Shown here piece after piece: positions 24,409-37,443 of a stretch of 64,000 nucleotides of DNA. The stretch lies in NCBI GenBank assembly GCA_002069815.1, contig MWCB01000002.1, positions 4,716-68,715 of the forward strand. The letters run 5' to 3'. This DNA is from Tenericutes bacterium ADurb.Bin239 (lineage in GTDB: Bacteria > Bacillota_I > Bacilli_A > RFN20 > CAG-826). The position numbers and the translations under genes were made by a program. The notes under the pieces were generated by a model. It had not been told where the DNA came from. It did not search any database and saw nothing but the letters and a program-made list of their open reading frames with translations. Numbering within the stretch: the stretch's first letter is position 1; each line of letters opens with the position of its first letter.

Positions 24409-25893
24409 TTAAGCCTTAGTTACCCAAGCGGGTAAGTAAGATGTATAACCACGAAAGGTAAATACTTTTGTATCATGGAACTTTGTATTTTCTTCACCAG
24501 TAACTTTGTTTTCAAAGTCTTGAAGGTCTTCGTTCCACACGGGAGTTCCACCTGTTTTAGTTAAATCGTAATAGCCCTTAACGGGGGTACTACCTTCCAT
24601 TACTAAGTCATTAGCGCCCCCATTAGTGGAGAATTTCATAGTTCCATTAGCCGCATTCCAGAAAACATTTAAGTTTAAAGAAATGCGTGGAATTTTATAA
24701 ATCCGTTCTACCGCGGCGGCGGCGGGGTGACCTTTTGTACCATCTAAGTTATAAGTATCATCAGGATTTGGTGGTCCAGGATTTTTATTATAGGCACCCG
24801 CTCTACTAGCGGCAATTGCCACCATATATGGATTTAAGGTATCCATCAAGGCTTGGCTATTACTGCCATGACTGCCGTGGTGACTAGCTTTATATAAGCT
24901 AACCTGTGGCAACGTTTCATTCCGTAATAAACTAGTTTCGCTCCCAGTTGTTAAATCACCCGCCGTAAAAAATTTAAAGTCTTGATAACAGAAAAGTAAA
25001 GCAAGGCTATTAGCGTTACCACTGCTTGTATCACTATATGCGCCAGTATTTAAGACATCCACATAAAATTCACTCGTAAAGTAATAACGGTTTGTTGCTC
25101 CATTTACTTTATTGATCGAATCAAGCGCAGTGTAATAAACGGCACCATCATTTTGTTGACGATTACGAATGAGTTGTTTGTAAGCACTACTTTCACCACC
25201 AGCGCGTCCATAATCTAAGAAACTAGTAATATGCTCAATATCGCGAACGATATACGGAATACCCTGAGTATGATCAGCGTCACCATGACTAGCAATAACC
25301 ATATCAAGCCGGCCATCTTCCACCTTTTCATTAAGGAAGTCACGATTCATTTCGCCATCACACTGCCACCCCGCATCAATTAAGATTTCAATATTGCCTT
25401 TTTTAATTAAGAGCGAGTCAGCGTAAATTTTATAAGTTTCTAGGAAGTATACTTCAAGAGGACCATCGCCTTCATATCCTTTATAGAAAGGATCATCAGC
25501 GCTTGTCCCCGTACCAACTCCAGTTTGTTCTGCTACCTGATTAACAGTTAAGAATAAACTAGCTTTAACATCAGGATAATTAAGCGCGTGGACATTAACC
25601 ATTGTTTGACCAGCGGCGACACCAGTGACAACACCGGTTTCACTGATAGTGGCCAAAGCAGTGTCCGTAACACTCCACACGACATCTTGCGCTGCGTCTT
25701 TTGGTAATACTTCGGCTTGTAGTGAAATAGTATCATTTACGTACGTAGTAACATCAAAAACTTGAGTGTTATCTTTTAAAATTTTAACACTTAAAGGTGT
25801 GGGGGGCACACTTACTACCTCCGAAGAGGAGCGCCTAGTGCAACCACTAAGCGCTAAGAGTACTAATAAACCAAAGGTGGCTAATCTTTTCAT
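24409..25893 (-). CDS. lipoprotein: Big_2 (Ig-like) domain + ComEC-C-terminal-type metallo-beta-lactamase hydrolase (putative extracellular nuclease/hydrolase)
   Basis: The lipobox LLALSGCTRRSSSE and a Big_2-like repeat (WSVTDTALATISETGVVTG) are present. The MBL motifs VIASHGDADHTQG and YKASHHGSHGSNSQ resemble the ComEC lactamase domain. Confidence 0.6.
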   Translation of the reverse strand: MKRLATFGLLVLLALSGCTRRSSSEVVSVPPTPLSVKILKDNTQVFDVTTYVNDTISLQAEVLPKDAAQDVVWSVTDTALATISETGVVTGVAAGQTMVNVHALNYPDVKASLFLTVNQVAEQTGVGTGTSADDPFYKGYEGDGPLEVYFLETYKIYADSLLIKKGNIEILIDAGWQCDGEMNRDFLNEKVEDGRLDMVIASHGDADHTQGIPYIVRDIEHITSFLDYGRAGGESSAYKQLIRNRQQNDGAVYYTALDSINKVNGATNRYYFTSEFYVDVLNTGAYSDTSSGNANSLALLFCYQDFKFFTAGDLTTGSETSLLRNETLPQVSLYKASHHGSHGSNSQALMDTLNPYMVAIAASRAGAYNKNPGPPNPDDTYNLDGTKGHPAAAAVERIYKIPRISLNLNVFWNAANGTMKFSTNGGANDLVMEGSTPVKGYYDLTKTGGTPVWNEDLQDFENKVTGEENTKFHDTKVFTFRGYTSYLPAWVTKA

Positions 25894-25897
25894 ATTA

Positions 25898-28024
25898 TTA
25901 AGCCTCGTTGATTAATTTAAGGTTATCAATATTAATACGATTACCAGTCCCAGCTTTAACACAAAGTGCAACACGAACATTGCTGCTAGTGTCAAGACGG
26001 ACGCGGTATTTTTGTAATTCAAAGTTATTAATAGTAAATTCGCGTTCGATTTTAATCCAAGTTGCTCCATCATCAGTGGACACTTCAAACATGAGAACGG
26101 TGCCCTTTGCGTTAGTTCCGTAAATGGCACAATCAAATTCAATCATGTTAAATTCAAGATCGTTTTCTTGTAATTCAATGCGACCAGCGTTATCTTGAGC
26201 AGCGTTAGTTTGGGTACGCATTGCATAAGTACCAGTACGCTTATCTCTTTTGTCACCACCGATTAAAGTGTTTCTAAGGTACCATTGCTTTTGAGTAGGA
26301 TGACCGAGAGTAACCATATCATCGTTATGTGTATATGTTGGTTTAGTGAGACTATTACCATAACCATTAGCTGAATCAGCATCCTCTAAGTCAAAGGTAT
26401 GTAAAATTTCAAGAATGCTTTCATCAGTTCCAAAAACAGTAACGAGGAAGGTTCTAGTTGTTTGTCCGGCCCCTTTCTTAACGGTAGCGGTTAAAGTAAC
26501 ATCTTCCATAATGTCGGGGTGCGTGACTGCGCCAGTACTAGCGTTAATAATAGCACTATCTGAAGCCCATTCAACCGTCACACCCTCGTAATTTTCTAAA
26601 GTTGTTGGTAGGTTGAGAGTCGTCACTGTCGTTGGCACACAGTCAAGTACCTCTAAAGTGGCCGCGGCAATTTGAGCGGCTTGTTGTTCCGTCATTACCG
26701 CCGCCCCAAAATCAGTTGAACGAACAATTTTGAGTTGGTTGGCTGGTTTACCATAACCAAATGCACACATAACCCCAACGACATCAATCGCCGAACCAGG
26801 AGCGGTGGCTTGGAATTTTGCATTAATTGCCGCAAATTCATCAACAGTCATTAACGTTGGGTCAACGCGGAGAGTAAATTCTTGATCACCAACCATTATT
26901 TTGACGTTGTAGGCTTTAGTATAGCTTGTTGGTAAAACACTGATAACCCCCGCTTTTATTTCAACGAATGAAGCTTGGTGGGTAGCCATATCATCTAAGC
27001 TTAAGAGATTTTTATCACTAACATCAACGATATTATAGGTTAGGGCTGGAGTATGTGGCACGAAGTATTCAACATCCACTAATTCACGAGTACCGAAATA
27101 GTTTTTGAAATAACCACCAACGGTATATGATTCACCAACGGTAACAGGAAATGCATTATTATCTTGTTTATAGATATAATATCCTTCCGCGCCATTTTGG
27201 ATAAAGTATTCAACCGTGCCTTCAGCGCTAACTGGCGCTGCATAAGTTACAACGCCACGGATTTTAAACGGAGTGCCGTTTTCCGTAGCAGTTGAAACAA
27301 AATCACTATGGAGACTATAATCCATATTTTCCCAGTTTTGGCCAACTGCATCTTCGACAACTTCAAGGCTAAAGACTTTTTTAACCGTGCCTTTAACTGC
27401 ACTTGTGGCAGTAATATCAACAGGGCCAACCGCGATACCGCTAACTAGGCCCGTATTATCAACTTCAGCTTTACTCGTATCAGAACTAGACCAGAGTACT
27501 TCTTGGCTAGCTTCAACTGGTAAAACAGTAGCGTTAAGTTTTAGCGTCCCGCCCACACTCACGATCGTTAAATCATCCACTGAATTAATAAGAATTTCAG
27601 TTGGATCGGGAGTAACGATAACTTTAGGAGTAATCGCTAGTGATACTTGGGCTGAGAGATCGACATTAACCGTTGAGGTTGCGATAATAAAGACATTTCC
27701 TTCCCCTATCCCAGTTACTTCACCACTGTCGGTAATAGTCGCTTTAGTTGTGTCACTAGTTGCCCAAGTGACACTTTGCGGGGCGCCTTCAGGTTTAACA
27801 GTAGCACTAAAAAGGGCTGACTCATCAACAGCCAAACTGCTTGGGCCACTAATAGTGATACTAGTTGGTGCAATTGGGCCTCCGCTACTGGTTGTTGTAA
27901 CAACCGATCCTTCGCTACTGCTTGTTTTACAGCCGCTTAGGAGTAAAGCTACAAGCGGAATTAATAATAATCTTCTTCGTTTCATAAACATCTCCTTTCT
28001 TATATATGTAAAAAACGAAAACAT
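25898..28024 (-). CDS. lipoprotein with three Big_2 repeats, OB-fold-like and lamin-tail-like C-terminal regions (putative surface nucleic-acid/ligand binding protein)
   Basis: The lipobox LLLSGCKTSSSEG is followed by three copies of W(A/S)(T/S)SDT(S/T)KA...GxVTG. The central and C-terminal domains are assigned by eye only. Confidence 0.5.
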   Translation of the reverse strand: MFSFFTYIRKEMFMKRRRLLLIPLVALLLSGCKTSSSEGSVVTTTSSGGPIAPTSITISGPSSLAVDESALFSATVKPEGAPQSVTWATSDTTKATITDSGEVTGIGEGNVFIIATSTVNVDLSAQVSLAITPKVIVTPDPTEILINSVDDLTIVSVGGTLKLNATVLPVEASQEVLWSSSDTSKAEVDNTGLVSGIAVGPVDITATSAVKGTVKKVFSLEVVEDAVGQNWENMDYSLHSDFVSTATENGTPFKIRGVVTYAAPVSAEGTVEYFIQNGAEGYYIYKQDNNAFPVTVGESYTVGGYFKNYFGTRELVDVEYFVPHTPALTYNIVDVSDKNLLSLDDMATHQASFVEIKAGVISVLPTSYTKAYNVKIMVGDQEFTLRVDPTLMTVDEFAAINAKFQATAPGSAIDVVGVMCAFGYGKPANQLKIVRSTDFGAAVMTEQQAAQIAAATLEVLDCVPTTVTTLNLPTTLENYEGVTVEWASDSAIINASTGAVTHPDIMEDVTLTATVKKGAGQTTRTFLVTVFGTDESILEILHTFDLEDADSANGYGNSLTKPTYTHNDDMVTLGHPTQKQWYLRNTLIGGDKRDKRTGTYAMRTQTNAAQDNAGRIELQENDLEFNMIEFDCAIYGTNAKGTVLMFEVSTDDGATWIKIEREFTINNFELQKYRVRLDTSSNVRVALCVKAGTGNRINIDNLKLINEA

Positions 28025-28434
28025 TTTTAGTTTTTCTAGTACGTTTGATTATCGTTTAGCAACCACCCCCTTTTTAAGTTACTGAAAGTGACCTAAAATA
28101 TTTATATTCGCTACAGTTGTAGGGAATAGGGGGCTAAAAAGTCTCTTGGAAAAGCTTTTTAGGATCACTTTAATAATAATTAAAAATATGACAATTGTCA
28201 AATAATACAGGTGAAATTTTCTTCCAGAAAATTGGTTATATTATGGTCATATGTGTGTATTGTGTAGACTTGTAAAAAAGTAATGTTACAGTAATTCAAT
28301 GTTTATTTTATTGTATGTCTACAATTAGGGCAACAGGACGTGCAATTACATTATTAGTTATTAGTGAATAATGTAGAAGAATAGTCATTTTATGTTATAC
28401 TTACAAAGTAAAAAAAGAGAAAAGGTGTAAATAC

Positions 28435-29949
28435 GTGAAGTTCTTACGATATTTAAAAGAAGTATTTATCTCAAGTTTACCCCTGCTTGCCGTTATTGTT
28501 TTAGTGGGCGGAATTATCTTTCCTGTTCAAACGAAAACTGAAATACTCCAACTAACGGTTGGTTATGTTGGGGTTGTTATTGGGCAAGCCATCTTTTTAT
28601 TTGGTTTAGATTACAGTGTTTTACCAATTGGGAACTTAATTGGAAGTTCAATTGTCAAATTAAATAAATTAGCGTTTGTGTTAATGTTTGCGTTCTTATT
28701 TAGTTTACTTGCAAGTGTTGCAGAACCAGGCATTACTGTACTAGCCGCGCAAGTAGGGGGCATTCATCCACGTATTAATAGTACACTTTTCATTTGGGTT
28801 ACAAGTTTTGGGATGGGGATTCTTACGGCTTTAGCGGTATATCGCTTAATTAAAGGGATTAGCATGAAAAAAATATTCTTCTTCTTTTACTTAGCGGTTA
28901 TCATCATCATTTTCTTTGTTCCTGCGCAATTCCAAGCGCTTGGTTTTGACGCAAGTGGGGCGGCTACTGGGGCAATCAGTGTTCCTTTTATTCTTGCTTT
29001 AGGTGTTGGAGTTTCGCACACCGTTAGTCGCAATAAATCAACGGAAGATAGTTTTGGAATTGTTGGTATTGCAGCGATTGGACCGATTATTACAGTTTAT
29101 GTCTATGGATTGATTGTTGGTAATAGTGATGTGTTAAACGTATACACTCCTGGTGAAAATAGTAATTTATTAGCTGTTATGTTAAATAACTTATTACCAG
29201 TGGCCCTTGCGGTATTCCCGCTTGTTGTTATCTTTCTAATTTTCCAAGCTTTCTTTATTAAATTACCGAGAAATAAACTTGGTCAAATTATTGTGGCATC
29301 GGTTGTCGTCTTTATTGGTTTATTTATTTTTATTGCGGCGACTGACTATGGCTTAGCGTTTGCGGGTAAGTATATTGGCGAACAATTTATGCTTAGTGAA
29401 AAATTATGGTGGATCTTATTGCCCCTAGCGTTTGTGCTGGGGTTTGCCATTACTTTAAGTGAACCAAGCGTTGTCGTCTTCTGTGAACAAGTTGATGAAT
29501 TAACGAGTGGTAGTATTTCTAAAAACACCATCAAAATGGCTCTTGGTATAAGTGTAGGATTAGCTACCTTCTTCGCCGTTATTAAAACGGTGTTTGATAT
29601 TAATATCTTGTGGTTTATTGTTCCTTTTTACGTAATTACCATTGGTTTAATTTATTTTACGCCCACTTTATTTGTCGGTTTGGCTTTTGACGGCGGGACC
29701 GTTAGCGCAGGCGCTATCACTAGTGCTTTTTTAACTCCAGTGACGCTTGGCGCTAGTCAAGCTTTAGGGCATACCAACATCTTAACTTCAGGATTAGGTA
29801 TTTTAGCCTTTATCAGTGTGATGCCGCGGATTGTGGTTCAAGTGCTTGGTATAATTTATGATTACCGCTTAAAGAAAGCGACACCACCAGTGTATGAAGA
29901 TATTAGTTACGACGCTACTAAACAAGAGGAGGCTAAAGATGACGCATAA
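28435..29949 (+). CDS. DUF1538-family membrane protein (internally duplicated, ~12 TM)
   Basis: A 504-aa polytopic protein whose two halves share the pattern GL(D/T)Y...P.G..IG. The assignment to DUF1538 is from memory of the family. Confidence 0.5.
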   Translation: MKFLRYLKEVFISSLPLLAVIVLVGGIIFPVQTKTEILQLTVGYVGVVIGQAIFLFGLDYSVLPIGNLIGSSIVKLNKLAFVLMFAFLFSLLASVAEPGITVLAAQVGGIHPRINSTLFIWVTSFGMGILTALAVYRLIKGISMKKIFFFFYLAVIIIIFFVPAQFQALGFDASGAATGAISVPFILALGVGVSHTVSRNKSTEDSFGIVGIAAIGPIITVYVYGLIVGNSDVLNVYTPGENSNLLAVMLNNLLPVALAVFPLVVIFLIFQAFFIKLPRNKLGQIIVASVVVFIGLFIFIAATDYGLAFAGKYIGEQFMLSEKLWWILLPLAFVLGFAITLSEPSVVVFCEQVDELTSGSISKNTIKMALGISVGLATFFAVIKTVFDINILWFIVPFYVITIGLIYFTPTLFVGLAFDGGTVSAGAITSAFLTPVTLGASQALGHTNILTSGLGILAFISVMPRIVVQVLGIIYDYRLKKATPPVYEDISYDATKQEEAKDDA

Positions 29950-30247
29950 AGAAGAATGGGTAGTGATGGTTATTATTGCCCGTCGGAAACATAAATCCGA
30001 ATTAGTAAAGATGCTCTACGACCATGAAGCAGCGATGGTGCATCAAACCTACGCAAAAGGGACAGCCAAAGCTAGTTTTTTAAAGTCATTAGGCTTCACT
30101 TTAGAGCAAAATAAACTCTTTTTACTTGGGTTTGTTAAAACCAATCAAGTTCCAGCAATCTTTAGTGTATTAGAACACAAATATCAATTTAAACAACCAA
30201 ACTCTGGGTTTGCCTTCACATTCCCACTGGAAAAGATTAGTTACTAG
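29939..30247 (+). CDS. PII-like (GlnB-fold) regulatory protein, paralogue 1
   Basis: About 102 aa (MTHKEEWVVMVIIARRKHKSELVKML...) with a PII-like alternating pattern. I chose the ATG at 29939, which has a GAGGAGG RBS and overlaps the DUF1538 stop, over the track start. Confidence 0.5.
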   Translation: MTHKEEWVVMVIIARRKHKSELVKMLYDHEAAMVHQTYAKGTAKASFLKSLGFTLEQNKLFLLGFVKTNQVPAIFSVLEHKYQFKQPNSGFAFTFPLEKISY

Positions 30248-30259
30248 GAGGACACTTTT

Positions 30260-30565
30260 ATGGCTGAAAATATGAAAGCATTATTTGTTATAGTAAACGC
30301 TGGCTTTAGCGAACAAATCGTTGAAGTTGCCCAGAAGCATGGCGCGCGTGGTGCTACTGTTATCCCTGCTCGTGGGACTGGTAAAAAGTTTGTCAAAGTT
30401 CTTGGTATTCAATACGAACCAGAACGCGAAATCTTATTAAGCGTAGTCGAAGATGAAATTGCTCATAAGATTGCCGCGGATGTCAAAGAAAACTATGGCA
30501 AAGCAACCCCGACAAACGGGTTATGTTTTATTTTGCCAGTTTCCGATTATTTATTTAAAGATTAG
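30260..30565 (+). CDS. PII-like (GlnB-fold) regulatory protein, paralogue 2
   Basis: ALFVIVNAGFSEQIVEVAQKHGARGATVIPARGTGKK...ILLSVVEDEIAHKIAADV aligns by eye to the GlnB beta-alpha-beta core and T-loop region. An AGGAGG RBS precedes it. Confidence 0.55.
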   Translation: MAENMKALFVIVNAGFSEQIVEVAQKHGARGATVIPARGTGKKFVKVLGIQYEPEREILLSVVEDEIAHKIAADVKENYGKATPTNGLCFILPVSDYLFKD

Positions 30566-30619: not shown

Positions 30620-33600
30620 ATGGGAAACTTTATTCGTAAATACATTGATACTGCACTCCTAGTTTTAAATGTCTTGGTCTTTGTTTTATTTACGCTCGTT
30701 TATCCTTTTGTTACTTTTGAACACACCTTTCTTAACGCCTTCTACTTTATCCTACTTAGTGCCCCCCTTATTACTTTCTTAGTACTGAGATTTTTAAAGT
30801 TTGACCCGAAGAGTGAAGCAAGTGTCTTTTATTATAGACGGGGTTTTAATTTACTTGCTTTTGTAAATAACTACTTGTTTATTATGACTGCAAAAAGTGT
30901 TTTTGCTTTAACTAAAGGAACACGCGGCCCTCTTTTTATTATTTATGTAATTTTCTTTTGCTTAATGTGGGCCATTAACGTTTTCCAAATTATTTTAGAA
31001 CTTGGCTATTTAGATAAATGGTTACCAGTTCGTGAATACGCAGTTGATGAAGCACAAGAAGAAACCAAAGCCCTTGCCCGCGAAGCTCAATTTAAACGGT
31101 TTGAAGAAAAAGCAGCGACCCGCTATTTCTTTATCGGGGTAGTGGCGTTTCTTGCCATTATTTTCTTTATTTACCCGCTTGCTACTGAATATTTTACTAT
31201 TCCTTTGGGCGGTGACTTCACCCAGCAACAAATACCTTTCTATACGAATGGCTATGATGACTGGTGGCATTTTATTAAGACTGGCGAATTTCCGCTGTGG
31301 GACAGCAATACCTTTTTAGGTGTTAATAACATTGGATCCAATAGTTTCTATTATTCAATGAACCCCTTCTTTTTACCCATCCTTATTTTCCCTCGGGAAT
31401 TAATACCACAAGGGATTAGTATTTTAATGATTGGGAAGTTTGTATTAGCGGCTGTCACAATGCGGTTATACTTAAAATACATGGGAATTGCCGAGAAAGA
31501 AGCAAGGTTCTTCGCCATTGTCTATGCCTTTAGCGGATGGAACGCTTATTATTTATGGTTTAACCACTTTATGGAAGTAGCGGTTATTTTCCCCTTTATT
31601 TTCCTTGGCATTGAAAAGTTGATTAAGGAAAAGAAAATGTTAACGTTGATTTTATCCTTAGGACTTATGGGGTTCGCTAACTTCTTCTTTTTAATGACGG
31701 TTGGGGTCTTAGGAGTTTTATACGCCGGCTTTCGATATTTCCAAAAATTACCAAAAGTTGAACCGAGCGTTATTGGTTTAGGAATTGTTGCTTTTGCGTT
31801 AGGAATGCTTTTAAGTAGTGTTGTTCTATTCCCAAGTTTAGTAATTGCGCTTGGAAGTGATCGGGCCACGGATGCGACTTATTTAGAAAAACTTTTGAAT
31901 TTATTTAAAAATGTAAGTTCATTAAGTCTCAAAGAACAAAGACGACAAATTTGGCATTTAATTACGAAATGGGAGCCTTATACTGCAGAAGGAACGCCGC
32001 CTAGTACACAATATTCCCATAAAAAGTTTTATCCGCTTATTTCTTATTATTTCCCTGTTTTAAGTAACAGAAGCGTTGCGCTACTTAATACTTCAAATTA
32101 TGACAATACAATTTCAAGTTTGTTCTCCTTTAGTCCAGTAATTATATTACTAATTCCGTCTTTATTTATTTCCGCTAAAAAGAAAAAAGTAAGTCATTTT
32201 ATCGCCCTTGCTTTCTTCTTGTTTGCTCTTTTTACTCCGTTTTTTTATCATGCTTTCCACGGATTTACGAAAGATTATGGGCGGTGGCAATTAATTGTTA
32301 CCTTTAGTCTTATTACTTATGTAGCAATGTCCTTACCAGCCATTAAAGATGAAAAACCATATCTTCTCGATATAAGTATTATCTTTAACTTAATTATGAT
32401 GGGGATTACCGCTAAAATAGCGTTCTCTTACGAGAATAAGAGTGGTTTTAGTTATATGTATCAACGCGAATACGTTATTTACTATCAAGCGCTAATGCTT
32501 TTTGTTGCTTATTTAGTACTTCGTTTAGGACGGAAGAGCCGCAATGAATATTATTTCCGTAATGCTTTTGTCTTCATTGAAATAGCGGTTATGGGCACGA
32601 TTACGATGATTGGACACGGCTTTATTAGTTATGAGAATAGCGTGTCAGGCGGATATAAAAATTATCGAGATGACTTAACGACAATTCGTGAAATACAAGC
32701 TTTAGATGGTACGTATTATCGCATTTTTAACTCACGAGCGTATCGCGGCAATGATAACTTACCAATGCGTGAAAATTATAATGGTTTGTCCACTTTCCAT
32801 AGTTTATATAACTTTGAATTAATGCCGTTTAATAATTGGTCAAAAATTAACTACAACAGTAAGGGTTGGAGTTTAGGCGTTTTTGAAAAGCGAAGCATGC
32901 TTAATGACTTCTTACAAATTAAATACTATATGCTTAATGACACAAATCATGTCTTACATTGGAATAATGCCGAACCAAGTGTTGCCCCTTATAAAAACAT
33001 CCCTAACACTTATGAATTTATGCCTGAATTAAGTAGTGATAATCGTTTTGTTTATAAAATGAAAGAAAGTTTTACCCTTGGTTTTGGGGTGGACGCGGTT
33101 ATAAGTTATGAAAGTAGATTAAGTGATGGAACATATTTAGATTTAATCGCTAAAGATCGTGTGTTTTCGCCAATTCAGAATGAAGAGTTATATTTAACAA
33201 GCGCACTCTTAAACTACGAGGACTATAATGAAGTAATACGTACTTATGGCGGTTTAACAAGCGAAGAAATTAATACCTTTCCTCATCAACATTACACACA
33301 TTTAAGTGTGAATAATGGCAAATTGAAAGCGAAGGTGTATGAATTTAATGGTCCGCGTTATCCTTATGAAGCGCAAACGAGAACCTTAGGTGAAATAATT
33401 TTGCCAACACCAACCTGGGTAGCGGAAAACGGCACTGAACTCGTACCAGCCTTAATGCCAGCCGAATTAAATGGCAGTAAACACGTTATCGAATATACGA
33501 AAAGGGACGGCACTAATTTTGTGGATGATGTTAATTTATTAGGTGAACAAATTGGTGGCGAACTTATTTTGCATTTACCGCTTTCCTACTACAACAGCAG

Positions 33601-34192
33601 TACCCTTTACTATAATTTCCGTTATCGTGTGTTCTTATATGATGAAAATTATGAATTAATTACTTTTGATGATCACCATACGTTACCAAGTTCATGGACC
33701 GACTGGAAAGCATTACGTAGTTTCCATTCGCCTAAAGCTGTTTCTAAAATTACGCTCGTGCCAATTGGCAGTCGAGTTACTCCGCCGCGGACTCATGAAT
33801 TATTCATGTATTCACAAGCGACACTTGATACTATTCGCCAAACGTCAATTGATAATTCTTTAACTGATGTTAAAGTTACAACGAATAAAGCAACCTTTAA
33901 AACAAACTTTCCCACTCGTAAGTTTGTCATCACAACGATTCCTTACGACAAGGGATGGAGTGTTGTAAATGAAAACAAAATAAAAATACCCGTCTATCGG
34001 GTCCAAGGCGGGTTTGTTGGTTTTGTAAGTAATAGTGGCGAAATGAGTTACACAATGTCCTTCCGACCACAATATTTCAATATGGGCTTAATGCTTACAT
34101 TTAGTGCTGGATTAGTAACGTTATTACTTGAGTTAAACGTCTACTTCTTTAAAAAATATAAAAAGACCAAAAAAGAAAACGCTACCGTTTAA
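30620..34192 (+). CDS. YfhO-family membrane protein (glycosyl/teichoic-acid-glycosylation associated), unusually long (1190 aa)
   Basis: GGDFTQQQIPFYTNGYDDWWHFIKTGEFPLWDSNTFLGVNNIGSNSFYYSMNPFFLPILIF is the characteristic YfhO N-terminal region. A large C-terminal extracytoplasmic domain follows the TM block. Confidence 0.7.
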   Translation: MGNFIRKYIDTALLVLNVLVFVLFTLVYPFVTFEHTFLNAFYFILLSAPLITFLVLRFLKFDPKSEASVFYYRRGFNLLAFVNNYLFIMTAKSVFALTKGTRGPLFIIYVIFFCLMWAINVFQIILELGYLDKWLPVREYAVDEAQEETKALAREAQFKRFEEKAATRYFFIGVVAFLAIIFFIYPLATEYFTIPLGGDFTQQQIPFYTNGYDDWWHFIKTGEFPLWDSNTFLGVNNIGSNSFYYSMNPFFLPILIFPRELIPQGISILMIGKFVLAAVTMRLYLKYMGIAEKEARFFAIVYAFSGWNAYYLWFNHFMEVAVIFPFIFLGIEKLIKEKKMLTLILSLGLMGFANFFFLMTVGVLGVLYAGFRYFQKLPKVEPSVIGLGIVAFALGMLLSSVVLFPSLVIALGSDRATDATYLEKLLNLFKNVSSLSLKEQRRQIWHLITKWEPYTAEGTPPSTQYSHKKFYPLISYYFPVLSNRSVALLNTSNYDNTISSLFSFSPVIILLIPSLFISAKKKKVSHFIALAFFLFALFTPFFYHAFHGFTKDYGRWQLIVTFSLITYVAMSLPAIKDEKPYLLDISIIFNLIMMGITAKIAFSYENKSGFSYMYQREYVIYYQALMLFVAYLVLRLGRKSRNEYYFRNAFVFIEIAVMGTITMIGHGFISYENSVSGGYKNYRDDLTTIREIQALDGTYYRIFNSRAYRGNDNLPMRENYNGLSTFHSLYNFELMPFNNWSKINYNSKGWSLGVFEKRSMLNDFLQIKYYMLNDTNHVLHWNNAEPSVAPYKNIPNTYEFMPELSSDNRFVYKMKESFTLGFGVDAVISYESRLSDGTYLDLIAKDRVFSPIQNEELYLTSALLNYEDYNEVIRTYGGLTSEEINTFPHQHYTHLSVNNGKLKAKVYEFNGPRYPYEAQTRTLGEIILPTPTWVAENGTELVPALMPAELNGSKHVIEYTKRDGTNFVDDVNLLGEQIGGELILHLPLSYYNSSTLYYNFRYRVFLYDENYELITFDDHHTLPSSWTDWKALRSFHSPKAVSKITLVPIGSRVTPPRTHELFMYSQATLDTIRQTSIDNSLTDVKVTTNKATFKTNFPTRKFVITTIPYDKGWSVVNENKIKIPVYRVQGGFVGFVSNSGEMSYTMSFRPQYFNMGLMLTFSAGLVTLLLELNVYFFKKYKKTKKENATV

Positions 34193-35024: not shown

Positions 35025-35844
35025 ATTTAACTTTATAATCCCTTTTTAATTCATCTAAGGGCAAAATCACAAAGCCGCCTTCATAATCAAGGCGCACGGT
35101 TCTATTTACGACATTAAAAGATGTTAGTTGATAAAGAGTGTCACTCCGCGTAAAAGTTGAACCAATATTTGGGAAGTCTTTTTTCGATTCTGTGTAATAA
35201 TCATCTTCATATTTTAAACAACAAAGTAATTTGCCACAGTGGCCACTTAACTTAGGAATATTGAGTGGTAGCATTTGGTTTTTAGCTCTGTTGATCGAAA
35301 TGCCATCAAATTCTTGCAGGAAAGTGTGACAACAAAGCGGGAACCCACATTGACCTAATCCCCCCACAAGTTTGGCGCGATCCCTACTTCCAATTTGGCG
35401 AAGTTCAACCCGTGTTTTTAAGTGTGAACCAAGGATTTTAACGAGTTCGCGAAAGTCAACTCGTTCTTCAGCGGCATAAGTAATATGAATTTTGGTGCGA
35501 TCAAAAGTATATTCAGACGTTAGTAGCGTCATTTTAAGATCAAGGCGTTCCACTTGTGTTTGACAAAAAGCCATGGCTAGCGCGGCATCTTTTATATTAT
35601 CTTCATGTTGGCGAAGTTCGTGCTCATTAGCGCGTCTAATAATATCTTTTAATTCCAAAGAACTACTATATTTGTCAATGCTTTGCGGCGGGGCCACTAC
35701 TTTAGCAACCGCTACGCCTTGACTGCTTTCGACTAATACATGATCACCCACTTCTAAAGTATTATCTTCAGTTCCAAAACAGTAAGATTTACCACCTTCG
35801 TTGTAAGTAATGCTTATAAAGTAACGTTCATTATTTTCAGTCAT
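35011..35844 (-). CDS. ricT: PSP1-domain protein YaaT/RicT
   Basis: The Cys cluster CGFPLCCH...CGKLLCCLKYE matches the PSP1 C-terminal domain. It sits in the conserved position after holB. Confidence 0.8.
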   Translation of the reverse strand: MTENNERYFISITYNEGGKSYCFGTEDNTLEVGDHVLVESSQGVAVAKVVAPPQSIDKYSSSLELKDIIRRANEHELRQHEDNIKDAALAMAFCQTQVERLDLKMTLLTSEYTFDRTKIHITYAAEERVDFRELVKILGSHLKTRVELRQIGSRDRAKLVGGLGQCGFPLCCHTFLQEFDGISINRAKNQMLPLNIPKLSGHCGKLLCCLKYEDDYYTESKKDFPNIGSTFTRSDTLYQLTSFNVVNRTVRLDYEGGFVILPLDELKRDYKVKYEKK

Positions 35845-36823
35845 TAGATGTTTCCTTTATCATTGAGATTAATAATTCATCGACGAGTAAGCCAGTATTG
35901 ACATAATCATCAACTTTCTTACTTATTTCATAAGTAGTAACAATAAGCGGCAGTGGATTAATAATAGTCTTTGCAAGCTTTACCACAAGGGTATCATAAC
36001 TTTTAAAAAGCCGCTCATGACCTATACTATAGTTTACAACATCTTTAAAGAAAAGCGCAAAGTAGGTGAAAACGCGCTTAATTAAAAAGCGATCACGAAG
36101 CGGAGTTATTAATTCGTGAGCTTTTAAGTATCCTTTGCGTGGATCTTCGCTAAACGCTTCTAAAGTGGCGATTACCGCAGTTTTATACTCTGGATAACGC
36201 TCAGACTTTGCTTCTTCCTCAATTAAACTAGGAATATTGTAAAAAGGAACTAACATTTCAATGTCTTCTTGGGTGATATCAAGTGATTCACAAAGTTTTA
36301 ATAAAATATCGCGCTTTATAAGTTGTAATGAAATAATTTGGCTTCGGCTTTTGATAGTGGGAATAACGTTGTGCAAGTTATTCGTAGTTAAAAAGGCATA
36401 TACTTTACCCGCGGGCTCTTCTAAAAACTTTAAAAGGGCGTTAGTAGCCTCAATTGTCATATTTTCAACGTTATGTGTGACATAAATTAAAACACCTTTA
36501 TGCTCAACGCTTGTCATGTTAAAAGCTTTTTCAAGCGCTAGCACACTTTCTTTTTTAATGCTTGACTCAGCGCCATCAAAAAAGAAAAAGTCAGTGTAAT
36601 TACCTTCTTCGAAGCGATGACATGATAAACATTTGTCGCATGCAAAAGGATTAGGATTATCACAAACTAAACTTTTGGCTAAGTAAAAAGCAACTTCTTT
36701 TAAAGGAGTGCCCGGTTCACCATCAAGTAAATAAGCGTGACTTAAATTGTTGTTTTTTAAAGCATTTCCAAATGTTTGGAAAAGAATAGGTTGAAAATCT
36801 TGTAAGTAACTATAAATGGTCAT
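35837..36823 (-). CDS. holB: DNA polymerase III delta' subunit
   Basis: AAA+-like HAYLLDGEPGTPL and a C4 Zn motif CDKCLSCHRF. It lies in the position conserved for holB after tmk. Confidence 0.8.
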   Translation of the reverse strand: MTIYSYLQDFQPILFQTFGNALKNNNLSHAYLLDGEPGTPLKEVAFYLAKSLVCDNPNPFACDKCLSCHRFEEGNYTDFFFFDGAESSIKKESVLALEKAFNMTSVEHKGVLIYVTHNVENMTIEATNALLKFLEEPAGKVYAFLTTNNLHNVIPTIKSRSQIISLQLIKRDILLKLCESLDITQEDIEMLVPFYNIPSLIEEEAKSERYPEYKTAVIATLEAFSEDPRKGYLKAHELITPLRDRFLIKRVFTYFALFFKDVVNYSIGHERLFKSYDTLVVKLAKTIINPLPLIVTTYEISKKVDDYVNTGLLVDELLISMIKETSND

Positions 36824-37443
36824 TTCTGGGGGAGATATTCTAAAATAACTTTTAGTGTATCTTCATAAACTTTCTCAAAACTTTGACTCGCGTCAATTAT
36901 ACGATAACGATTTTTATATTTTTTACTTAACTCTAAGTAGGCATTTCGGACTTTAATATAGAAATTACGTTCTTCTAAATCTAACCGATTAACTTCCCGA
37001 TGTTTATTAGCTTTAATTCGTTCAAAACCAATCTTTGGCTCTAAATCAAACAAAAGCGTTAAATTTGGAAATGTATCTTCAACTGCAAATAGATTAATCC
37101 CTAAGACAGTATCAACACCTAAACCACGTGCGGCACCTTGATAGGCGAGCGAAGAGTCTAAATAACGATCACAAATAACAACTTTTCCAGCTTTTAAAGC
37201 GGGCCGAATTTTTTCCACAACGTGCTGACGACGACCTGCTGCAATTAAAAGAGCTTCAGCGCGGGCATCTAGGGCTGTGTTTTTCTTATCTAAAGTAACA
37301 TCACGAATTTGTTCGGCGATGGGAGTGCCACCGGGTTCGCGAGTGTAAACAATGTCATAACCTTTTTCAATAAGTGTTTTTACAATTTGATTAGCGATAC
37401 TTGTTTTACCGCTTCCTTCTGGGCCTTCAAAAGTAATAAACAT
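36820..37443 (-). CDS. tmk: thymidylate kinase
   Basis: MFITFEGPEGSGKTS is the P-loop and DRYLDSSLAYQG is the DRY motif. Confidence 0.9.
   Translation of the reverse strand: MFITFEGPEGSGKTSIANQIVKTLIEKGYDIVYTREPGGTPIAEQIRDVTLDKKNTALDARAEALLIAAGRRQHVVEKIRPALKAGKVVICDRYLDSSLAYQGAARGLGVDTVLGINLFAVEDTFPNLTLLFDLEPKIGFERIKANKHREVNRLDLEERNFYIKVRNAYLELSKKYKNRYRIIDASQSFEKVYEDTLKVILEYLPQK

Follow-up and report, generated by a model that had tools for sequence, protein, structure and literature searches.

The question raised by the locus described here is what two small PII-like proteins do immediately downstream of a membrane protein of the DUF1538 family. In the window, a 64,000-nucleotide stretch of DNA from Tenericutes bacterium ADurb.Bin239 (contig MWCB01000002.1, positions 4,716 to 68,715), three tightly packed genes on the plus strand within positions 28435-30565 encode a DUF1538 transporter and two small proteins that we call S1 and S2. 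Few signal processors in biology are as widespread as the PII proteins, and of the transporters that they act on only a small number are understood (chiefly AmtB, SbtA, and some ABC systems). A first-pass annotation of this DNA, made from the sequence alone, had proposed that the transporter is functionally coupled with two PII-fold paralogues. Using family profiles, structure models, and comparison of related loci, we found that this coupling is supported by conserved gene order and by domain fusions, whereas gating of the transporter is something that we infer. Given how widely the cassette is conserved, the small proteins almost certainly act on the transporter. The three genes very probably specify a functional transporter together with a PII-like module, and the explanation that best accounts for the locus as a whole, in which we place slightly better than even confidence, is an operon for a cation/proton transporter regulated by PII-like proteins. 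The genes are as follows.

28435-29949, plus strand: DUF1538 transporter gene; GTG start; 504 amino acids; fused two-domain, single-chain equivalent of the UmpA plus UmpB pair
29939-30247, plus strand: S1 gene; ATG start; 102 amino acids; highly diverged PII-like protein
30260-30565, plus strand: S2 gene; 101 amino acids; PII-family protein with a noncanonical B-loop

As the first-pass annotation had noted, S1 begins before the transporter gene is finished; its start lies 11 nucleotides inside the end of that gene and overlaps the transporter stop codon. A mechanical list of open reading frames puts the S1 start earlier, at 29894. We preferred the ATG at 29939, which has GAGGAGG 6 nucleotides upstream and gives a 102-amino-acid product that matches a database protein labeled "Tenericutes bacterium ADurb.Bin239" (P0001) at every residue from end to end. 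S2 starts 12 nucleotides after S1 and 7 nucleotides after AGGAGG. Through these overlapping and adjacent genes, S1 and S2 would be made in step with the transporter.

To follow the cassette across genomes, we scanned 80 metagenome loci and additional genome loci with our own hidden Markov models of the three families, calling a locus PII-less only when at least 650 nucleotides of downstream sequence were present. At 68 of the 83 informative loci, S1 lay directly downstream of the transporter, with S2 behind it where the contig continued; neither was found downstream at the other 15. All seven close reference-genome relatives keep the order transporter-S1-S2 wherever the contig is long enough. 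The same order is kept in Lacrimispora, in an Erysipelotrichaceae genome, and in a third lineage (transporter identity, 47 to 57%), where the first small gene has a weak P-II match or none and the second matches P-II, weakly so in the third lineage. Among plasmid and chromid records with a DUF1538 gene, a sample that spans Firmicutes (approximately 31 to 34% identity) and Alphaproteobacteria, PII-like domains lay directly downstream in nine of nine. The DUF1538-PII neighborhood, which the first-pass annotation had proposed to check, is thus conserved. No third partner was found: no family was enriched among 116 flanking genes (maximum, 4 of 116), and genes for nitrogen assimilation or carbon fixation were not enriched next to the cassette in that set. 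The conserved unit is the cassette itself, and its surroundings give no metabolic hint. Its carriers are mostly anaerobic heterotrophs from digesters and guts.

The 15 PII-less loci (L046, L048, L053, L055, L060, L063, L067, L068, L070, L076 to L078, L080, L082, and L086) form a single clade in a neighbor-joining tree and come mostly from termite-gut samples. At L046 the next genes encode a response regulator and a hybrid histidine kinase, and at L060 a small convergent gene comes next.

A series of split and fused forms of the cassette shows which parts work together. In Methylocystis, two separate DUF1538 genes are followed by one PII gene, and in Chelativorans a short A-type gene and a B gene are followed by one PII gene. 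The A-type subunit of these split loci matches the N-terminal half of the window protein, and the B-type subunit matches the C-terminal half. The single alphaproteobacterial PII protein scores 69 to 72 bits with the S2 model versus 39 to 49 bits with the S1 model; S2 thus resembles the PII protein of the split-subunit arrangement, which is presumed to be ancestral. The first-pass annotation had offered one regulator per repeat as a reason for two paralogues. This idea is disfavored because the split loci, with two half-size subunits, have a single PII gene.

Fusions point toward joint action. In Vescimonas, Paraclostridium, and Peptoclostridium, a fused transporter is followed by one tandem PII-like protein of 222 to 224 amino acids, and in Acetoanaerobium and Subdoligranulum two adjacent PII-like domains lie 3' of the transporter at a place where no gene is annotated. 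Where the models clearly separate the two domains of the tandem form, an S1-like N domain precedes an S2-like C domain; the N domain of the Vescimonas and Acetoanaerobium forms gives a weaker and less clear-cut signal. About a quarter of the 105 cluster representatives of the S1 family (see below) are two-domain proteins. Furthermore, at loci from two unrelated metagenome lineages (L035, 5420-5911; L073, 1793-2212), the transporter reading frame continues into S1 without a stop codon, and a fragmentary database protein (P0147) joins the C-terminal part of a DUF1538 protein to a P-II domain; each of these three fusions stands on a single contig, where sequencing error is possible for any one. 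The transporter-S1 and tandem S1-S2 fusions are the strongest evidence available that S1 would sit at the transporter C terminus and that S1 and S2 would act together 1:1. As for the heterotrimeric regulators that had also been suggested, the common tandem fusions speak for joint S1-S2 action, and their 1:1 ratio is at odds with a simple, closed heterotrimer like that of NifI (2:1). Separately, at one locus, in Peptoclostridium acidaminophilum (L096, 4950-6458), the DUF1538 and tandem-PII cassette is convergent to a gene for a ClC H+/Cl- exchanger; this arrangement was seen once and shows no enrichment at other loci.

Next, we considered whether both small proteins have the PII fold. S2 passes the Pfam P-II model (PF00543) with 41 bits versus a cutoff of 25, and its homologues are annotated "P-II family nitrogen regulator." Its sequence matches in the PDB are TTHA0516 (2cz4), which is the best solved sequence match of the S2 family (E value, 6.7e-07), and a 105-amino-acid PII chain of a methanogen nitrogenase-PII complex (9p1x). 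As a single sequence, S1 had no match in Pfam (E ≤ 0.1) or NCBIfam, no PDB match by phmmer, and no BLASTP alignment to S2. A word-indexed search for S1 homologues returned two proteins only, and profile and fold methods were needed. An exhaustive HMMER search yielded 105 cluster representatives, and when 68 family members were aligned, 30 of them matched Pfam P-II (E ≤ 0.01). The best eight PDB matches of the S1 family profile were all PII proteins, and hhalign aligned the S1 family with the S2 family at 98.2% probability (E value, 2.8e-14; 99 columns). The AlphaFold model of S1 (predicted local distance difference test score [pLDDT], 89) has a beta-alpha-beta-beta-alpha-beta topology. Of its 50 best Foldseek matches in the PDB, 49 were PII, PII-like, or CutA proteins and the other one was unannotated; GlnK, PstA, CPII, PotN, SbtB, and TTHA0516 were among them. 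A ferredoxin-like core of approximately 100 amino acids with T- and B-loops is therefore found in both proteins, in S1 by its model and in S2 by Pfam. The earlier statement that two paralogous proteins align to PII thus stood for S2 as it was and for S1 through profile and fold, whereas every single-sequence test of S1 was negative. Judged from these alignments, S1 and S2 are paralogues at the profile level only, with S1 being the more diverged copy. S1 is also the faster-evolving copy, in that identity among close relatives is 39 to 87% for S1, 59 to 87% for S2, and 68 to 90% for the transporter.

One match in the exhaustive S1 search was rejected. P0220, a 790-amino-acid immunoglobulin-domain protein that is apparently eukaryotic (E value, 7.8e-04; six matched stretches), is a false positive, and near-threshold matches in that search need checking.

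To examine the ligand site, we aligned 61 S1 and 53 S2 sequences to an Escherichia coli GlnB sequence that we supplied ourselves. Against this reference, the B-loop TGxxGDGKIF reads F-D-K-P-N-T-G-I-A-F in S1 and approximately K-K-T-P-A-H-G-I-C-F in S2. K90 is exchanged for I in both proteins, and G87 is exchanged for N in S1 and for A in S2. G89 alone is kept in both, and K58 is kept in S1 (97%). A HMMER alignment to the PII chain of 9p1x, which is independent of the GlnB alignment, gave the same B-loop substitutions. Neither protein has the canonical PII ligand residues, and on these alignments the classical ATP/ADP/2-oxoglutarate site appears to be absent from both. Because the canonical ATP and 2-oxoglutarate residues are missing, a signal would probably not be sensed in the classical way. 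The T-loop of characterized PII proteins is their target-binding, ligand-responsive element. In S1 and S2, the T-loop is approximately 17 residues long, and both families conserve the motif LG(L/I)..E in its region. The B-loop is short, and both proteins end right after the last strand.

The membrane protein belongs to DUF1538 (PF07556), with two Pfam matches that cover both of its halves (E value, 5e-106; 353 bits versus a cutoff of 22.6), and more than 1200 homologues were found. The NCBIfam models of UmpA and UmpB (NF041627 and NF041628) gave 147 and 118 bits versus equivalog cutoffs of 490 and 500; by these profile scores the transporter is a member of the same family as UmpA and UmpB and not an equivalog. 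The first-pass annotation had described the 504-amino-acid protein as two homologous halves, and the halves do align, at 27% identity over 212 residues (E value, 2e-16). The two repeats are as follows.

28435..29118, plus strand: repeat 1, residues 1-228; N terminus inside; carries E97 (AEP motif) and D172 (FDxSGxxTGxxSVPF motif)
29167..29880, plus strand: repeat 2, residues 245-482; N terminus outside (inverted); carries E343 (SEP motif) and D419 (FDGG motif)

We tested for inverted topology by applying the positive-inside rule to the sequences of 62 homologues. The mean numbers of lysine plus arginine (K+R) in equivalent loops of the two repeats were 2.5/0.6, 0.4/3.2, 2.6/0.8, 0.3/1.8, 3.2/0, 2.2/0.2, and 0.6/5.5. 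This bias alternates, and each loop of repeat 1 falls on the opposite side from its repeat 2 equivalent, which is the signature of a 7+7 inverted repeat. The predicted topology has the N terminus inside, the linker between the repeats outside, and the C terminus inside. Homologous domains with odd numbers of helices in opposite orientation, which mark inverted-repeat secondary transporters, are thus both present, and the homologous halves together with the alternating K+R counts indicate a 7+7 inverted repeat by sequence, as the first-pass annotation had suspected. Among the same homologues, E97, D172, and D419 are invariant and E343 is nearly invariant. These carboxylates make up two pseudo-symmetric pairs, E97/E343 in (A/S)EP motifs and D172/D419 in FDxxG motifs, and all four are located at helix breaks in the AlphaFold model, which is all-helical (pLDDT, 86.5; predicted template modeling score, 0.86). 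The conserved glutamates and aspartates are also present in the split alphaproteobacterial subunits.

The only characterized member of the DUF1538 family is UmpAB of Halomonas zhaodongensis, a Na+(Li+,K+)/H+ antiporter (PMC5484666). Its antiport, measured in everted vesicles, is pH-dependent; both subunits, each predicted to have seven transmembrane segments, are needed, and they co-immunoprecipitate (PMC5484666). The window protein is like UmpAB in belonging to the same Pfam family, in having two homologous seven-helix units of the kind that are needed together, and in its conserved acidic residues. It differs in that the units, which are separate subunits in UmpAB, are fused into one chain and in that it falls far below the NCBIfam equivalog cutoffs. 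In addition, one paper groups DUF1538 with Mrp, Kdp, and Trk as features of adaptation to pH, the statistical association being weak (PMC13255231). By analogy with the distant UmpAB, and given the four conserved membrane carboxylates and the weak pH-adaptation association, we consider it an even call that the substrate is a cation exchanged for protons. The first-pass annotation had called the substrate unknown; the family does have a characterized member (PMC5484666), and the cargo proposed here for the window protein is putative.

A further element of the transporter may connect it to the small proteins.

29866..29946, plus strand: RLKKATPPVYEDISYDATKQEEAKDDA, cytoplasmic acidic tail, residues 478-504; predicted to be disordered; candidate PII-docking element

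AlphaFold models residues 487-504 with pLDDT values under 50. In 68 of 68 PII-associated fused transporters, the tail extends at least 28 amino acids past the last helix. These tails average 51 residues with 12 aspartates plus glutamates versus 6 lysines plus arginines, and they often contain an ELxxL-type acidic amphipathic stretch. In 15 of 15 PII-less homologues, the tail has at most 14 amino acids.

We propose that the region is a single operon for a secondary ion transporter together with the cytoplasmic module that controls it. In this mechanism, the two seven-helix halves would be oppositely inserted, with broken helices that carry E97 and D172 in repeat 1 and E343 and D419 in repeat 2, and monovalent cations would most likely be exchanged for protons, as in UmpAB. 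S1 and S2 together would form a probable hetero-oligomeric module on the cytoplasmic face of the transporter, with S2 as the likely sensor or gate and S1 as the likely adaptor tied to the acidic C-terminal tail. A small-molecule signal would then cause S1 and S2 to switch transport on or off, as GlnK acts on AmtB and SbtB acts on SbtA. That S1 and S2 regulate the transporter by binding it directly seems to us probable. A stricter version, in which an obligate 1:1 S1-S2 hetero-oligomer docks on the tail and the cytoplasmic face and gates ion flux through a noncanonical ligand site, S1 being a degenerate adaptor and S2 the sensor, is tentative, and we would sooner expect it to fail than to hold. 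If it were true, the complex would be the second heteromeric class of PII proteins after NifI1,2.

Several points weigh against this reading. UmpAB showed its activity in E. coli in a study that neither mentioned nor included a PII partner (PMC5484666), and S1 and S2 are therefore dispensable for basal transport, at least there. The transfer of the UmpAB substrate to the window protein is weak because its scores lie so far below the equivalog cutoffs and because a single heterologous study is its source. The first-pass annotation had suggested a search for known transporter folds; a Foldseek comparison of the transporter model with the PDB gave no meaningful match (best template modeling score, approximately 0.2), and with no solved relative the fold gives no mechanistic support. 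R38, Q39, G87, K90, R101, and R103 are not conserved in the 61 S1 or the 53 S2 sequences, so that sensing of a ligand is an assumption to which the sequences themselves do not point. The correlation between tail and PII genes amounts to one evolutionary loss event because the PII-less loci are a single clade, and in Alphaproteobacteria a PII gene is present although the tails of the B subunits are short. The idea that S1 docks electrostatically on the acidic tail was set aside as speculation: S1 is basic in the window (charge, +6; isoelectric point, 9.7), but the family is approximately neutral (mean net charge, +0.6; standard deviation, 3.6), so complementarity to the tail is weak. For these three reasons, namely the single loss, the short alphaproteobacterial tails, and the near-neutral S1 family, we put forward docking of S1 on the tail only as a hypothesis. 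Finally, the link between PII-like proteins and DUF1538 transporters comes from genomic comparison.

The main competitor keeps the architecture and changes the cargo. The transporter could carry bicarbonate, ammonium, another anion, or a small metabolite, with S1 and S2 reporting the matching metabolic state as SbtB does for SbtA. Transporters known to be gated by PII, namely AmtB and SbtA, have nitrogen or carbon species as their cargo, the bicarbonate-binding PII-like protein CPII is among the structural neighbors of S1, the functional data come from one distant, heterologously expressed member, and the transporter fold matches no solved antiporter. However, four pseudo-symmetric carboxylates embedded in the membrane suit cation and proton binding better than anion binding, genes for nitrogen assimilation or carbon fixation are not enriched beside the cassette, and a life as anaerobic heterotrophs of digesters and guts does not favor such cargoes. 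We therefore regard a different cargo as rather unlikely, though it is the alternative to be taken most seriously. It is also conceivable that S1 and S2 are constitutive cytoplasmic subunits that stabilize, assemble, or complete the transporter and have kept the PII fold while losing signaling. The missing nucleotide and 2-oxoglutarate residues, the fusion of S1 to the transporter in several lineages, and the tight translational coupling of the genes would all be expected of such subunits. An entire transporter clade without S1 and S2 would not be, nor would the activity of UmpAB on its own in E. coli. The LG[LI]..E motif conserved in the T-loop region of both proteins also speaks for more than a structural role, and PstA, SbtB, and CPII bind ligands despite noncanonical sites. 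Such a constitutive role is thus improbable. That the genes are adjacent without functional meaning, either because the small proteins are independent nitrogen regulators or because S1 is not a real gene, could be argued from the absence of a database family match for S1 alone and from the name "nitrogen regulator" that NCBI gives to S2-type proteins. The comparative data in effect refute this explanation: in Firmicutes and Alphaproteobacteria alike the genes keep their order and spacing, domain fusions occur as well, the S1 family comprises 105 cluster representatives, the S1 model is confidently PII-like, and nitrogen genes were not found nearby.

A different kind of control, by a riboswitch or structured leader upstream of the operon, was suggested in the first-pass annotation by the length of the intergenic region. 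This region (28025-28434) is indeed 410 nucleotides long. When eight orthologous upstream regions were aligned, the only conserved features were an extended -10 element, an A-rich leader, and a ribosome-binding site.

28393..28401, plus strand: TGTTATACT, extended -10 promoter element, based on the upstream alignment of eight orthologous loci
approximately 28421-28427, plus strand: AAAGGTG, ribosome-binding site, 3' of the A-rich leader

A generic promoter scan did not list the TGTTATACT element because its -35 is weak. The operon leader is approximately 25 to 30 nucleotides long and is therefore too short for a riboswitch. An Rfam scan of the whole window found nothing at the gathering threshold except one tRNA, and permissive matches in 27950-28500 were noise, every E value being above 1. 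Moreover, the remainder of the 410 nucleotides belongs to a divergent gene, for which a strong, near-consensus promoter-like site lies at 28201-28173 (minus strand). The Rfam result and the short leader of the orthologues speak against a riboswitch in 28025-28434, which we rejected, and we consider control of the operon from a structured leader to be very improbable.

The same region contains an inverted repeat, ACCACCCCCTTTT ... AATAGGGGGCT (28030-28170, minus strand), located after the promoter-like site at 28201-28173 and before the divergent gene begins. Orthologous loci L012 and L003 share this repeat, more distant loci do not, and the minus-strand RNA that contains it folds at -32.9 kcal/mol (z = -2.9). 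The repeat may be a leader structure of the divergent gene and not of the DUF1538 operon.

That divergent gene (25898-28024, minus strand) encodes a 708-amino-acid lipoprotein with Big_2 domains. With the gene at 24409-25893 (minus strand), it forms an adjacent pair of large predicted Big_2 lipoproteins, the second of which contains a metallo-beta-lactamase domain as well. Translation of the 708-amino-acid reading frame probably begins later than listed. Residue 14 is the first of a lipoprotein signal peptide, MKRRRLLLIPLVALLLSGC, with AAGGAG before it. Downstream of the cassette, a gene at 30620-34192 (plus strand) encodes a YfhO-family membrane protein of 1190 amino acids, which is unusually long (the Pfam YfhO model has 835 positions). 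A gene of approximately 1165 to 1190 amino acids occupies this position in the five close relatives with long enough contigs (L001, L002, L004, L006, and L007), and the three that were scanned were all YfhO; the YfhO gene is absent from the same position in more distant loci. No terminator-like site was seen between S2 and the YfhO gene, and one overlaps the last 61 nucleotides of S2 (30505-30522). Cotranscription of the cassette and the YfhO gene is possible.

The first-pass annotation had also remarked that darA, which encodes a PII-like protein and lies between tmk and holB in Bacillus, is absent from that slot in the window. We agree: tmk (36820-37443, minus strand) and holB (35837-36823, minus strand) overlap by 4 nucleotides, and therefore no darA lies between them. 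The genes stand in a compact minus-strand block in the order dnaX, recR, tmk, holB, a PSP1/RicT-like gene, and rsmI, which has neither yaaQ (darA) nor yaaR of Bacillus.

The cassette is a widespread, self-contained unit that pairs a barely studied transporter family with PII-like proteins of derived ligand site. The literature searched, in which discussion of PII was checked for part of the six papers that mention DUF1538, contained no paper connecting DUF1538 with PII. A methanogen fitness-screen paper names PII in a reference only, and a Borrelia "PII-like" lead, BB0017, proved to be an unrelated YitT/DUF2179 protein. UmpAB has been studied without its likely regulator. The name "P-II family nitrogen regulator" is carried by S2-type proteins, and nothing in this analysis ties them to nitrogen. 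Firmicutes of guts and digesters commonly carry the cassette, and its physiological role, which may lie in ion, pH, or energy homeostasis, could matter for these communities.

PII control of transporters is already known, and "DUF1538" and "P-II family nitrogen regulator" are standard labels for such neighbors. In one such case, GlnK plugs the cytoplasmic face of AmtB through its T-loop, which is the logic that we propose for the cassette. The cassette resembles GlnK-AmtB in that the genes of a transporter and of a PII-fold protein are neighbors. It differs in that GlnK has the canonical ATP/ADP/2-oxoglutarate residues and a uridylylatable Y51, which S1 and S2 do not; in that AmtB is of another family, the DUF1538 model having matched no solved structure; and in that there are two PII genes instead of one. 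SbtB-SbtA resembles the cassette in that a noncanonical PII-like protein is cotranscribed there with an inverted-repeat, Na+-dependent secondary transporter, the cyanobacterial bicarbonate transporter, and SbtB structures are among the matches of the S1 model. However, we found no sequence-level relation of SbtB to S1 or S2, which lack its C-terminal redox-sensitive extension. Their partner is a DUF1538 protein, SbtA was not among the listed Foldseek matches of the DUF1538 model, and the cassette has two PII-like paralogues; with neither the SbtA partner nor the extension, S1 and S2 are not SbtB proteins.

PstA (DarA), which binds c-di-AMP, shares the PII-like fold, and its structures are among the top Foldseek matches of S1, although sequence identity is 13 to 15%. 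PstA has a short T-loop and a long B-loop (PMC6516651), the opposite of the T-loop of approximately 17 residues and the short B-loop of S1 and S2, which have neither these loop lengths nor the tmk-holB position of PstA/DarA. TTHA0516 of Thermus thermophilus (2cz4), a PII-like protein from structural genomics, has an (I/T)PARG(T/E)G motif in common with the S2 family; no paper naming it was found in the literature searched.

A precedent for a pair is NifI1/NifI2 of methanogens, in which two adjacent genes encode PII paralogues whose products join in one hetero-oligomer; the best PDB sequence matches of S2 include a 105-amino-acid PII chain from that complex with nitrogenase (9p1x). Unlike the cassette proteins, however, NifI acts on nitrogenase and not on a transporter, keeps the canonical ligand residues, and assembles 2:1, as opposed to the 1:1 implied by the S1-S2 tandem fusions. 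The conserved gene pair and the tandem fusions in five Firmicutes genera are indirect, sequence-based evidence for a heteromeric S1-S2 complex, and the pair offers a test case for heteromeric PII assemblies. Taken together, these comparisons place what is new here in a paired or tandem PII-like module with a derived B-loop and an implied 1:1 stoichiometry, joined to a transporter fold without a solved relative.

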